DNA of 64,000 nt from Escherichia phage VB-EcoM-WM. Below the pieces are notes generated by a model. The model was not told the DNA's origin, ran no database searches, and saw nothing but the letters and a program-made list of their open reading frames with translations. The position numbers were made by a program, and so were the translations under genes. Positions 14,672-22,709 of this stretch are shown here, in pieces; the stretch's first letter is position 1, and every line of letters begins with the position of its first letter. The stretch is taken from sequence record PQ014731.1; one strand, given 5' to 3'.

Positions 14672-14959
14672 TCATAGTGTCTCTAAAATTTCATACCCTT
14701 CGGGTCGGAAAACAAGCCACTCAGGTGCTCCATTTGGTCGATACGCTTTATACAGAACAACCTGATCTCGGCACATGCACATGGCTACATAGTTTTCATC
14801 AACACCTGCCTCCTGCATTGCATCTTCTTCTCCGGCAACAGCCTTGCTTACAACTTCCTTGGTAGGCAGGTGGGCGATCAGCTCGTCACCATCGTTAATT
14901 CCAAAATGACTGAGTTCTCCATTGGTATCTTTAATCTTGATCTTAACCAAATCTTTCAT
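14672..14959 (-). CDS. small acidic protein, paralogue family member
   Basis: ORF track; MK-start, acidic; tandem with similar genes. Confidence 0.5.
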   Translation of the reverse strand: MKDLVKIKIKDTNGELSHFGINDGDELIAHLPTKEVVSKAVAGEEDAMQEAGVDENYVAMCMCRDQVVLYKAYRPNGAPEWLVFRPEGYEILETL

Positions 14960-15288
14960 TATTCTTCCTCCAGGTTCAAAGGTCCTAAGATTTCATATGC
15001 TAGATTAGAAGTTACCAGAGGGTCTTCTGCATCTTTAGTATTATACCATCCGTGAATAACCAGAGTCCCACTTTGCTTCATGTCTAACTGGAACTGTTCT
15101 GCCGTTTCCTCATCCATCTCCAAGATCTCCATGAGGTATTTGATGTTAGGAAGGTATGCAGCTGTTACAGTCCCCTCTACCAGGCCTTCAGGCCAACCTA
15201 CATCCGGATGACAAGTAGGGACCAGAGATGTCAGCTTGATAGTGTATGCTTTTTCTGCACGAGCCTTCAGTAACGGATCAATTTTCAT
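14959..15288 (-). CDS. small acidic protein, paralogue family member
   Basis: ORF track; acidic C-terminal tail; start/stop overlap. Confidence 0.5.
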   Translation of the reverse strand: MKIDPLLKARAEKAYTIKLTSLVPTCHPDVGWPEGLVEGTVTAAYLPNIKYLMEILEMDEETAEQFQLDMKQSGTLVIHGWYNTKDAEDPLVTSNLAYEILGPLNLEEE

Positions 15289-15638
15289 TATTCTTCCTCC
15301 TCTTCGGTGCCTGCTTCCAGCAGTAAGTTAAGAACATCTTCAGCAGAAGGTTCGTAGAACTCTTGGCCTTCGTTGTCGATAATGCGATAGTCATCACCAC
15401 GAATAATCAGAGGATCGTCATCAAAACCTTCAAGACCTTTAACAACGACAACACGGTCGATTGCCATCATTGTAAGAACTTTATCGACATCTTCCTCTGC
15501 TACACCATACTGCAGCAGAATGTCTTTGGTAGGAGGGACAGCATCCACCACAACACCGTTACCAAAACCTTCCGGAAGTTTAGCTAAAATATCTTCCGGA
15601 ACCACATTCATATCAAAACCTGTGATCTCTACTTTCAT
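15288..15638 (-). CDS. small acidic protein, paralogue family member
   Basis: ORF track; MKVEITG start, poly-E tail. Confidence 0.5.
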   Translation of the reverse strand: MKVEITGFDMNVVPEDILAKLPEGFGNGVVVDAVPPTKDILLQYGVAEEDVDKVLTMMAIDRVVVVKGLEGFDDDPLIIRGDDYRIIDNEGQEFYEPSAEDVLNLLLEAGTEEEEE

Positions 15639-15899
15639 TTACAGAACCTCTTCGTCAACTACTTCATAAAAATGGCTTGGGATTGCAATGGCGTTCTCAC
15701 CTTCACCTAAGAACACTGTCCCACTAACGATTAACATTAGAAGAACGTCTGCGATACCTTCCTCGGGGACGTTGCCAAAACCTTTAATCAGCTCGTAGGT
15801 TGGAAGATTTACCTCTAAGATGTCACCATCTTTGGAGCGGAAATCAACACCATCCTGAATCTCTGCCGTTTCAAGGTTTTTCAATTTAATCTTCATCAA
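15639..15899 (-). CDS. small acidic protein, paralogue family member
   Basis: ORF track; MKIKL start, YEVVDEE tail. Confidence 0.5.
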   Translation of the reverse strand: MMKIKLKNLETAEIQDGVDFRSKDGDILEVNLPTYELIKGFGNVPEEGIADVLLMLIVSGTVFLGEGENAIAIPSHFYEVVDEEVL

Positions 15900-15975
15900 T
15901 CAGTCTCCTGTCTTGTTAAGATGAAGGTATTATTGCACACAGGGTTGGTGTTGTCAACACCTGTGTGGAATAAAA

Positions 15976-16371
15976 TTACTGAAACAGTGCAGATAAATTA
16001 CCTTCTGGTGGGAACTTATCTGCCAAGAACGGAGTCAGAACAGTGGCCTTCTGAAGATCTGGAGTCCACTCGTTGTTCAGAACATCCCAGTAGTACGCAA
16101 TGTTGCTGTGTGGGTGCCGCATTACGAACTTTTTCCCTTCGTAGTCAGTTGAAACCTCTACAGAAGAAATAACAACAGAATCTTCAAGAGTTTCTTCATA
16201 GAAAGATCCACCCTCGAATTTCCAACGAGATGCAAGAGCTCCTGCCTTAAACGCTGCAGATAACGGACTGTCGGCAAGAACATACATTTCTTGCACTCTG
16301 TCGCTACGATCTTTGCTTCTTACGTTGTATACAGTATCTGAGCTATACTCAACACGGTATAGACTTACCAT
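15976..16371 (-). CDS. hypothetical protein, paralogue of 18174-18584
   Basis: Shared HP-S-x-YW-x-WTP motif. Confidence 0.5.
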   Translation of the reverse strand: MVSLYRVEYSSDTVYNVRSKDRSDRVQEMYVLADSPLSAAFKAGALASRWKFEGGSFYEETLEDSVVISSVEVSTDYEGKKFVMRHPHSNIAYYWDVLNNEWTPDLQKATVLTPFLADKFPPEGNLSALFQ

Positions 16372-16703
16372 TACCGCACCTCCTCAATAACTTCCACATC
16401 TGAACCAACCACAAATGCAAAAGGGCAGGTTTCATGAAAGACAGCCGGATCGCCGCCAAGCTTGCTAACTATTTCTCCACCACTAATAAACACAAGCTCA
16501 CCGATATTCATCAGATTGCTGAAATAGTATCCATAATGATTAAAGAATGCAGCAGGGTCAGGCAGACTGGTAGCCTCAAGCTCTACATCGGTTGAGATTA
16601 CTTTCTTATCATACCCTCTGGCCTTTTGAGATGCAAGATCTGCAGAATCCTCAGGCGACCTGAGATGCACAGGAATTTTTTCACCAATAAAGCGTACTTT
16701 CAT
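16371..16703 (-). CDS. small acidic protein, paralogue family member
   Basis: MKVRF start; VVGSDVEVIEE tail. Confidence 0.5.
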   Translation of the reverse strand: MKVRFIGEKIPVHLRSPEDSADLASQKARGYDKKVISTDVELEATSLPDPAAFFNHYGYYFSNLMNIGELVFISGGEIVSKLGGDPAVFHETCPFAFVVGSDVEVIEEVR

Positions 16704-16707
16704 ATTC

Positions 16708-20756: not shown

Positions 20757-20814
20757 TCTCTCTACCTCTTTCTTAGTTTATTTAGTTATGGCACATCCTT
20801 TGTGCCTTATTGCA

Positions 20815-21276
20815 CTACTTAAACAACAGTTCAAGATAGTGCAAAATTAACAGAAGTTGAATTACGCCTAGCACAACGGCAAGTATGTTAATCTTAGAAT
20901 CAAAAAACTTCTTAACTTTTGCCCTAAAAGGCTCCTTAATGTCCTTTACGATCCTATTTATAGATGATTTCATATCCCTGATTACCATCCTAAACATTAG
21001 AGACGGATCTTCCTTCTCTGTAACAGAATCGAAAACATACTCTCTTCGGTCATAAGGACCTCCAGATCTGCGTATTAACCTCTCCACAGAGACCTCGTAC
21101 GACACACCTGTAACGTAATCATCTATGACAAGTAGTGACGGGTCTTTATCGTCCAAGGGTATCAAAGTTATCTTTCCAGATTTTGTTAAAATTTCTCCTT
21201 TTTCAAGCAAAGTGTACCAATGCTCTCTACCAAGATTGTTGAGGCACGTTTTTACATATTTAACAAACATCGTCAC
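20815..21276 (-). CDS. hypothetical protein with C-terminal TM helix (153 aa)
   Basis: ORF track; hydrophobic C-terminus. Confidence 0.5.
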   Translation of the reverse strand: MTMFVKYVKTCLNNLGREHWYTLLEKGEILTKSGKITLIPLDDKDPSLLVIDDYVTGVSYEVSVERLIRRSGGPYDRREYVFDSVTEKEDPSLMFRMVIRDMKSSINRIVKDIKEPFRAKVKKFFDSKINILAVVLGVIQLLLILHYLELLFK

Positions 21277-21458
21277 CCCTCATCGCACGTCTGATATAAC
21301 CATTCTATGAAATCTTGATACCACTCTCCCTCTGAGCGCTCCGTAGGCCAATAATCTTCCCCCTCTCTTGCATTAAAATCTGAGTATTCAACTTTCCACT
21401 CCTTTACCAGCTCGTGGAGAAGGTTTTCAGCCTGTTCTAAGGATTTATTTTTTGTCAT
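21273..21458 (-). CDS. hypothetical acidic protein (about 61 aa)
   Basis: Internal ATG after AAAAAGGGGA; the track start is non-ATG. Confidence 0.4.
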   Translation of the reverse strand: MTKNKSLEQAENLLHELVKEWKVEYSDFNAREGEDYWPTERSEGEWYQDFIEWLYQTCDEG

Positions 21459-21678
21459 TACTGTCCCCTTTTTCAAGATAATTATACATCAGAACTGCAC
21501 CACCTAAGATGGCTACCAGCAACAATACCCCAGATAGCATCTCAATAAACATGGCTTGAAACACTAGAAGGCCCCCTCTAATTTCACGCACCATTTTAAA
21601 TACATATTCTTTTCCCATAAAGGTGCCCGGCTAAGATCTGCGTAGAACGCAATCTCTTTAAGAACAGTATAAACAGTT

Positions 21679-21915
21679 TTAGGTGCGGTATCCATCCCTG
21701 CTCTCCTTTTTCTCCTTACGGGTATTCTTGTAGTAATCAACTAGGCACATTATTACGATGAAGATAACAACAGGCCAAAAAGGTGCAGCAGTGATGATGG
21801 TGATAAAATCATCAAACTTCACCCTTCGTGTAGACACGATGCATATACCTGTCAATATTACTGCTGTTATAACAGCTACTACTAGGTAACCTATTAGCAC
21901 AGCATTTATACTCAT
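21679..21915 (-). CDS. membrane protein (78 aa)
   Basis: Two hydrophobic helices. Confidence 0.45.
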   Translation of the reverse strand: MSINAVLIGYLVVAVITAVILTGICIVSTRRVKFDDFITIITAAPFWPVVIFIVIMCLVDYYKNTRKEKKESRDGYRT

Positions 21916-21933
21916 TGGCCCCTCCTTCGTAGG

Positions 21934-22479
21934 TTAAATTGTGCACTTCAGGTGGTTGTCGATGGTGTCAAGAAAATTATCCCGTTCTTTCTCAGAGTTT
22001 TCACGGATGTAGCTGAAAAACATATCTAGAATAACCTTATTGATATATTCCAACTCCTCTGTGTTCAGGTACTTAGCAGGATCTACAATGACATCCCAAG
22101 TATCATACAGACCGCACTCATGATACCCCCAACGCCGCTCAATTGTCAAACTAATCGGCAAATCTTTACCGTCACAAACAACCCTCCATCTACAGATGCT
22201 GGTATCTGGGCGTACCTGTGCACGGTATACCTGTACAAAATCCAATTTGAATTTGAGGTACTCGTCATACAATTTAAGCACAAAGCTCTCGATTTGTGGA
22301 GACACTTTTGCAGCAAACTGTGCGTATTTGTACTTGCACTGGATGATCTTTCTGCGTTTTGCAGTTAAATTTTTTGCAGCCAGTTGTTCTTCAGTGTACC
22401 TCCACCTACGATCAACAAACGCAACAGGGTCTTTGTCACCATAGAGGTCTTCCCAGTTAATCAGAAGCATACCTGTCAC
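21934..22479 (-). CDS. hypothetical protein (181 aa)
   Basis: ORF track. Confidence 0.55.
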   Translation of the reverse strand: MTGMLLINWEDLYGDKDPVAFVDRRWRYTEEQLAAKNLTAKRRKIIQCKYKYAQFAAKVSPQIESFVLKLYDEYLKFKLDFVQVYRAQVRPDTSICRWRVVCDGKDLPISLTIERRWGYHECGLYDTWDVIVDPAKYLNTEELEYINKVILDMFFSYIRENSEKERDNFLDTIDNHLKCTI

Positions 22480-22709
22480 TCCTCCACAACTTCAAGGCCT
22501 TTGCCGCCTCGTTCTGGTAGATTACTTAAAGACAGGTAATACGTATAGTCAGGAGAGATCCTACCAGACTCTGCACCTGCAGATAGTAAATCTTTTCCCT
22601 TAACCATGACAACATTATCGTTTGCAGATAGTCGTTTTGCTTCCACAATTTTACCAACGCAGTCAACCAAGGAAGGGTACCCTAAATCTGTAAGAAATTT
22701 AACTTTCAT
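22476..22709 (-). CDS. small acidic protein, paralogue family member
   Basis: MKVKFLTD start; GKDLLSAGA motif; LEVVEE tail. Confidence 0.5.
   Translation of the reverse strand: MKVKFLTDLGYPSLVDCVGKIVEAKRLSANDNVVMVKGKDLLSAGAESGRISPDYTYYLSLSNLPERGGKGLEVVEE

Follow-up and report, generated by a model that had tools for sequence, protein, structure and literature searches.

The locus analyzed here raises a twofold question: do ten small, similar-looking genes of a virulent coliphage belong to a single family, and what might their products do? The genes lie at positions 14,672 to 22,709 of a 64,000-nucleotide stretch of Escherichia phage VB-EcoM-WM (sequence record PQ014731.1), which we refer to as the window. 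The window belongs to a genome of the genus Vequintavirus, the rV5-like virulent myoviruses of Escherichia coli, whose relatives here have genomes of about 136 kb. An initial annotation, made from the sequence without database searches, described one lineage-specific, expanded family of at least eight small acidic proteins and suggested that they might be host-takeover or anti-defense effectors. The checks that it proposed gave a more divided picture: alignment and hidden Markov model (HMM) building separated the ten genes into two families of five, which we call A and C; the search of phage sequences placed family A outside the genus as well; and structure prediction yielded an SH3-like barrel for the one modeled member of each family.

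Two sequence families within the array

Genes are named below by their lower window coordinate. All ten open reading frames (ORFs) listed in the initial annotation were confirmed at their coordinates, and all of them are on the minus strand. When the window is compared with six other Vequintavirus genomes, each of the ten genes is under purifying selection, with ratios of nonsynonymous to synonymous substitution rates (dN/dS) of 0.02-0.19 and zero internal stops; a neighboring gene for a ribosome hibernation factor, with a dN/dS of 0.04, falls within the same range. We saw no sign of positive selection on the array genes, every ratio being at most 0.19.

By sequence, the ten genes, which encode small soluble proteins and belong to the accessory gene block of the phage, form two families of five. 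Three members of family A are readily recognized: 22476 (22476-22709, 77 amino acids, ortholog of rV5 gp122, dN/dS 0.11) carries the motif GKDLLSAGA, 18829 (18829-19053, 74 amino acids, gp135) carries GADLIAAGA, and 18585 (18585-18839, 84 amino acids, gp136), which has an insertion between strands 2 and 3 of the fold described below, carries GSDLIAAGA. All three match the PHROGs family phrog_5009 (E = 8.5e-36, 4e-38 and 5e-31, respectively), and in BLASTP comparisons among the 411 window ORFs 18829 pairs with 18585 at E = 6e-14 and with 22476 at E = 4e-6. An HMM built from these three proteins retrieves 16708 (E = 1.2e-6) and 16371 (E = 2.3e-5) and no other ORF of the window. Of this second pair, 16708 (16708-16971, 87 amino acids, gp142) is divergent, with the degenerate motif GSDMKSLGA, and 16371 (16371-16703, 110 amino acids, gp143, dN/dS 0.09), which has a long insertion between strands 2 and 3, is the most divergent member. 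A broad family A profile recovers them at E = 2.2e-15 and 4.6e-5, respectively. In PHROGs, 16708 matches phrog_13920 and, weakly, phrog_5009 (E = 1.4e-4); 16371 has no phrog_5009 match and is matched at 2e-5 to 2e-14 by the profiles built in this analysis. The conserved segment of the family reads G-x-[DE]-L-[IL]-x-x-G-A and is accompanied by a Y-x-F strand. The central G(S/A)DL(I/L)AAGA motif of the initial annotation is thus clear in 18585, 18829 and 22476; 16708 and 16371 carry degenerate forms of it, and every member of family C lacks it.

Family C consists of 17060 (17060-17329, 89 amino acids, gp141), for which an SH3-like barrel with a helical insertion is predicted; 15639 (15639-15896, 85 amino acids, gp145), the first gene after the promoter known in rV5 as P150; 15288 (15288-15638, 116 amino acids, gp146), which has a C-terminal extension of about 30 amino acids ending in EEEEE and a net charge of -22; 14959 (14959-15288, 109 amino acids, gp147), which has an N-terminal extension; and 14672 (14672-14959, 95 amino acids, dN/dS 0.06). 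Pairwise BLAST similarity among these proteins is weak (E = 0.5-4). In leave-one-out HMM searches against the 411 ORFs, the omitted protein was the best non-member match in all five tests, at E = 1.7e-5 for 14672, 5.8e-3 for 14959, 3.3e-5 for 15288, and 0.09 and 1.1e-3 for the other two. Each omitted member also outscored 1,998-2,000 of 2,000 composition-preserving shuffles of itself, and therefore the match is not explained by composition alone. A lack of similarity beyond composition, which the initial annotation named as the result that would speak against a family, was accordingly not what we found within either family, A being connected by BLASTP and HMM and C by its advantage over shuffled sequences. 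HMM searches of the neighboring small ORFs 13196, 17866 and 22749 for further members gave nothing significant (E at least 0.09).

The rV5 reference differs from the window at the last of these genes. Compared with the window and with phage naswa, it carries two 1-nucleotide insertions (L005, 5080-5380), which split the ortholog of 14672 into gp148 and gp149. The old reference may contain a sequencing error at this point, and for that reason we do not take the split as evidence of dispensability. Several GenBank records (e.g. L016, L017) label the orthologs of 17060 as 'sigma 54 modulation factor', a mislabel transferred from the gene for the hibernation factor.

Predicted fold

We modeled one member of each family with AlphaFold2, using the family alignments. 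The predicted local distance difference test scores were 94.5 for 22476 (family A) and 92.3 for 17060 (family C), and in both models the protein is predicted to be an SH3-like five-stranded beta-barrel. The first strand comprises residues 2-5 and the last strand the final five residues; in the family C model about 30 residues of helix are inserted between strands 2 and 3. The nearest solved structures to the predicted barrel are SH3 domains, with modest scores, and the closest known fold is the SH3-like small beta-barrel found in eukaryotic SH3 domains, KOW domains, the C-terminal domain of PhnA, and OapB. A Foldseek search of BFVD returned only uncharacterized small phage proteins, for example those of RB49, Sf20 and pSf-1. 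Sequence searches gave no further lead. In Pfam, seven of the ten window genes had no match at E<=1 and the other three had sub-threshold matches to unrelated families; the KOW, Sm and S1 models did not match the window genes, and 49 diverse family A relatives had no Pfam match at E<=0.01. Across Pfam, NCBIfam and PDB, searches with the ten genes, the 49 relatives and families B (described below) and C detected no known family, enzyme signature or solved relative.

Shared termini and acidic character

The shared start noted in the initial annotation is non-random: the pattern MK[VI][KRE][VILF] begins 7 of 144 non-overlapping window ORFs, and six of the seven are listed genes. Gene 17060 begins with the same pattern and was left out of the 144-ORF set by a longer ORF on the opposite strand. 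In the models the N-terminal MK(V/I)K(L/F) segment corresponds to strand 1 and the C-terminal (Y/L)E(V/I)VEE segment to strand 5, and the ten genes look alike by eye because their termini are the first and last strands of the predicted barrel. The acidic VVEE tail is the last beta-strand in both models rather than a free tail, and 16708 ends in the non-acidic ...MVVG.

The same termini also carry translational signals, and many of the genes are coupled in translation. In six of the ten genes (22476, 18829, 16371, 15639, 15288 and 14959) a Shine-Dalgarno sequence, GGAGG or GAGGAGG, that serves the following gene is embedded in the terminal GAG/GAA codons, and the downstream gene begins at, within, or 1 base past the stop codon. 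An exact 18-nucleotide repeat, GGAGGAAGAATAATGAAA on the coding strand, occupies two TAATG junctions (window 14954-14971 and 15283-15300). We regard the acidic end as both structural and translational, because the broad family A consensus of unrelated phages also ends in E-x-E-V-V-E-E. Inspection of the junctions likewise bore out the tight packing with start/stop overlaps: TAATG overlaps occur at 14959, 15288 and 16371, TAA is followed by ATG without a gap at 15638/15639, neighboring genes overlap by 11 nucleotides at 18829-18839, and a 4-nucleotide overlap is found at 22476-22479.

Nine of the ten proteins are acidic as described, with isoelectric points (pI) of 4.05-4.80 and net charges of -7 to -22, but 22476 (pI 5.4, net charge -1) does not share this character. 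Acidity is also not distinctive of the array, because half of the small proteins in the gene block have a pI below 5.

Relationship between families A and C

A single family of at least eight genes, as originally proposed, was not demonstrated; the two families of five are linked only by the predicted SH3-like fold and by collinear terminal strands. HMM cross-searches found no link between A and C, with E>2 in the window and a best E of 0.03 among 105 diverse family A proteins. Comparison of small, large and sub-family profiles with hhalign, in local and global modes, gave probabilities of 0.4-19% and P values of 0.0013-0.13, that is, no significant link, and the resulting alignments were always in register, with P down to 0.0013.

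All ten genes may nevertheless descend from one ancestor, in which case A and C would be far-diverged branches of one SH3-like family that arose by tandem duplication in this region. The two families are collinear in the MK(V/I)K strand, a G-x-v-V-x-A segment, an insertion site after strand 2, a hydrophobic strand 3 and the (Y/L)E(V/I)VEE last strand; the insertions of the family A members 18585, 16708 and 16371 fall in the same loop as the helical insertion of family C; the genes of the two families are physically interleaved; and the better hhalign alignments (P 0.0013-0.004) are in register every time. However, the low hhalign probabilities, the failure of either family's HMM to retrieve the other and the absence of the G-x-D-L-I-A-A-G-A motif from family C all count against a single ancestor, and SH3-like barrels arise very often, while strand chemistry and embedded ribosome-binding sites partly account for the shared termini. 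Because so common a fold and such modest scores carry limited weight, we consider a common origin plausible, close to an even call, rather than shown.

Distribution of the families

Within the genus the array is strongly conserved. The 9.5 kb around it share 91-95% full-length identity with more than 100 Vequintavirus genomes, and the 4.5-kb core is present at >=90% identity and >=80% coverage in 116 of 120 matching records, in syntenic order. Among the sequences that resemble the rV5-like phages are 18 GenBank records named 'Campylobacter phage' (MG0656xx, host Campylobacter jejuni), which are about 92% identical to the E. coli phages here; probably their host label is wrong, or the records are contaminants.

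Outside the genus, a profile search of 1.84 billion cluster representatives detected 72 family A clusters at E<=1e-3. Most are stand-alone proteins of 63-90 amino acids that match end to end, and their consensus is MKVKLL-x2-GGY-x-G...G-x-ELI-x-x-GA...Y-x-F...E-x-E-V-V-E-E. A few relatives are tandem fusions of two or three domains, and one (P0127) is fused to DUF3310. We considered this fusion as a functional lead and found it uninformative, DUF3310 itself being uncharacterized. All 49 diverse relatives that were scanned match phrog_5009.

The genomic slots of these homologs are varied. In mEp021-type temperate coliphages and E. coli prophages the gene lies between Q, the late regulator/antiterminator, and the holin gene. 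In other prophages it lies in a recombination/methylase block upstream of the integrase gene, and relatives include Morganella and Moellerella loci. In one viral contig (L011) it is found between ORFs of 404 and 658 amino acids that resemble, by eye only, a replicative helicase and a DNA polymerase, and in a divergent 136-kb rV5-like contig a homolog occupies the gp122 position. The closest described counterparts, mEp021_40 and related prophage genes (temperate coliphages mEp021, mEp013 and mEp554), share 42-51% full-length identity with 22476 and are alike in motif and termini. They differ in being single-copy genes of temperate phages, located between Q and holin, and are annotated as hypothetical. 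Each related locus that we read outside Vequintavirus has one family A copy; five copies are present here, and therefore the expansion is genus-specific. A single-sequence tblastn search with a family A member matched no other virulent phage group of the collection, and family C was not found outside Vequintavirus. The description of a lineage-specific expanded family is therefore right for the expansion and for families C and B, which we found only in Vequintavirus-type sequences, but family A also occurs in mEp021-type coliphages, prophages and viral contigs.

Existing resources record these proteins without a function. Full-length matches of the window proteins are found in phrog_5009 together with phrog_13367, 7345, 8603 and 15322 (E = 1e-31 to 1e-73 over the A and C profiles), and family C proteins match phrog_11868, 12155, 12359, 12457 and 12794 over their full length. 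PHROGs scatters the ten genes over eight families with no function assigned, the two paralogous sets are unrecorded, and there is no Pfam or NCBIfam model. All ten rV5 orthologs are annotated as hypothetical. The rV5 genome paper does not mention paralogs, duplications or gene families (PMC3606486), and we found no description of these genes in the literature on Vequintavirus anti-defense, rV5 paralogs, transcriptomes and mEp021.

Gene order and neighboring elements

Read along the minus strand, the array begins with A gene 22476 and, after an interval, continues with A genes 18829 and 18585, B gene 18174, an unrelated small gene, a promoter, the hibernation factor gene, C gene 17060, A genes 16708 and 16371, B gene 15976, a second promoter and then C genes 15639, 15288, 14959 and 14672, with a terminator farther downstream. 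Family B comprises 18174-18584 (about 132-136 amino acids, ortholog of rV5 gp137), directly downstream of the A pair 18829/18585, and 15976-16371 (131 amino acids, gp144), directly downstream of the A pair 16708/16371. The two are paralogous (BLASTP E = 1e-11, 27% identity; phrog_7379) and each follows an A pair, so that the array contains two runs of genes in the order A-A-B. Only Vequintavirus-type sequences yielded family B, and in a search outside the genus no A gene was linked to a B gene or to a hibernation factor gene.

The HPF/RaiA-like hibernation factor gene is located in the middle of the array, at 17467-17784 on the minus strand. Near-consensus sigma-70-type promoters are present on this strand, and two of them correspond to promoters annotated in rV5. 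One at 17832-17860 (minus strand, 11/12 consensus positions; rV5 P144) lies upstream of it and the genes that follow. Another at 15929-15957 (minus strand, 11/12 consensus positions and an extended -10; rV5 P150) precedes the four-gene run of family C. Downstream of the gene run, at 13549-13572 on the minus strand, is a G+C-rich, terminator-like hairpin that the rV5 annotation gives as a rho-independent terminator. In rV5 the block is part of one transcription unit, 82-163, together with nucleotide-metabolism and replication genes (PMC3606486).

Elsewhere in the window we observed a group I intron at 58393-58617 (plus strand, Rfam 92.7 bits). A 136-nucleotide stretch at about 29823-29954, inverted and 78% identical to part of that intron, adjoins two features identified by eye, an ORF of 183 amino acids at 29972-30523 (minus strand) resembling a homing endonuclease and a ribonucleotide-reductase-like gene. 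The stretch may be a second intron. Six tRNA genes are clustered at 55399-56122 (plus strand). One of them is an unusual 99-nucleotide tRNA-like gene (55868-55966), to which ARAGORN assigns a four-base anticodon and Rfam a weak tRNA score of 37.5 bits.

Natural variants of the array

The BASEL phage Bas59 (EduardKellenberger, MZ501061.1) has a natural 3.8-kb deletion corresponding to window 18259-22074. The deletion takes out 18585, 18829, most of B gene 18174 and about a dozen more small genes, and it joins the orthologs of gp123 and gp137 into one coding sequence annotated as 'putative glycosidase'. A metagenomic phage (P0016) encodes a hybrid protein with the N-terminus of 18829 and the C-terminus of 18585, joined in or near the shared DLIAAGA segment, which points to recombination between neighboring paralogs as read from the sequence. 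Other metagenomic Vequintavirus variants affect family C: in one (P0087) a DUF7399 N-terminus is joined to the C-terminal half of the 14959 protein, while variants of the 17060 protein have either lost an internal segment (P0082) or undergone a frameshift (P0085, P0091).

Possible function of the array proteins

We tentatively favor the interpretation that these proteins are stand-alone protein-binding modules which act on host proteins or on competing elements, their paralogs diversifying the targets. Each protein would be a non-enzymatic module, produced after infection, that binds and modulates a target belonging to the host or perhaps to a competing element. The range of targets would have widened as the genes duplicated and diverged, and the genes would be accessory, individually non-essential yet retained by selection. 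Protein binding is suggested by the predicted fold and by the fact that the proteins are small, negatively charged and devoid of catalytic motifs; early timing is suggested by the promoter type. The modular behavior evident from the tandem A-domain fusions and the DUF3310 fusion counts in favor of this interpretation, as do the accessory placement in other phages and the natural deletion in Bas59.

Some observations weigh against binding of host or competitor proteins. The top structural neighbors of the models include nucleic-acid-binding barrels (KOW domains, OapB and the C-terminal domains of retroviral integrases). Furthermore, when Bas59 is plated on six restriction systems, five abortive-infection systems and six test strains, it does not differ obviously from Bas57 and Bas58 (PMC8594841 S1 Data). 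Results on EcoPI differ from one to another of the three phages (PMC8594841 S1 Data), and the efficiency of plating (EOP) of Bas59 on EcoKI and EcoCFT_I is similar to that of Bas57 and Bas58 (PMC8594841 S1 Data); the other eight array genes remain in Bas59. Since Bas59 is a viable isolate whose plating matches that of its relatives, a vequintavirus can do without at least two family A genes in the laboratory, and these two are unneeded against those systems; redundancy is possible because three A paralogs remain. The host-takeover or anti-defense role suggested initially would agree with sigma-70-type promoters, an accessory location and two naturally dispensable members, and the Bas59 comparison lends it no support.

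The proteins could instead serve the phage's own machinery, as adaptors or chaperones for replication, transcription or assembly. Strong purifying selection, the transcription unit shared with nucleotide-metabolism and replication genes (rV5 unit 82-163) and the position of the L011 homolog, by eye only, between helicase-like and polymerase-like ORFs would agree with such a role. We nonetheless think it unlikely, given that a viable phage lacks two members, that family C was not found outside the genus and the tblastn search with an A member matched no other virulent phage group of the collection, and that temperate phages carry the family A gene in 'moron' slots. In another alternative, the proteins would be regulators that bind RNA or DNA, of the host or of the phage, in the manner of KOW, Sm and OapB-type barrels. 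The hibernation factor gene within the array (17467-17784) would fit a role in translation, but family A homologs elsewhere are not beside such a gene, the Pfam models for KOW, Sm and S1 are unmatched, and the charge of nine of the ten proteins (-7 to -22, pI 4.05-4.8) is unfavorable for nucleic-acid binding, all of which makes this role rather improbable. That same charge could mark acidic DNA mimics directed against restriction or other DNA-targeting defenses in the manner of Ocr or ArdA, for the proteins are small, acidic and non-essential and lie behind sigma-70-type promoters that suggest early timing, and restriction of Bas57-59 by two type I systems, EcoKI and EcoCFT_I, is slight (EOP about 0.06-1). 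We give this explanation very little credence: the BASEL authors explain weak type I restriction by how seldom the sites occur in most phages and call the group exceptionally restriction-sensitive, Bas59, without two of the members, seems no more sensitive to type I systems in the published plating data, the predicted fold appears to be a compact barrel rather than an elongated DNA-shaped surface, and 22476 is nearly neutral.

The protein-binding interpretation can also be extended into a more ambitious form, in which A and C would together be one undescribed, widespread SH3-like family of counter-defense or host-takeover binders, the ten genes of Vequintavirus an arsenal with one host factor per paralog, and A-A-B a functional module. 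In this full form we hold it to be doubtful.

Significance and comparison with known systems

The genes are already catalogued as hypothetical proteins and as PHROGs without function. What is apparently new is that they form two families, that an SH3-like fold is predicted, that family A extends so widely while lacking any curated model, and that the acidic ends have a dual coding role. The two families are now delimited, where the Vequintavirus records that we examined say only 'hypothetical protein', mis-transferred labels aside. The confident models and clear motif make family A a practical candidate for a new domain family and for a target search, and Bas59 is a ready natural deletion phage in a public collection. 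The array itself is not surprising, as large virulent phages commonly carry groups of small accessory paralogs that diverge quickly, and it gives no hint of an unusual mechanism.

Among characterized phage proteins, the array proteins can be compared with the inhibitors Ocr and Gp2 of T7 and Arn of T4, which are small, acidic, non-essential, early proteins of virulent coliphages without enzymatic motifs; for the array proteins, early timing is what the promoter type suggests. To our knowledge Ocr, Gp2 and Arn have no sequence or predicted-fold relationship to them. The biology of the phages also sets the comparison apart, in that the rV5-like group is strongly restricted by type II and type III systems.

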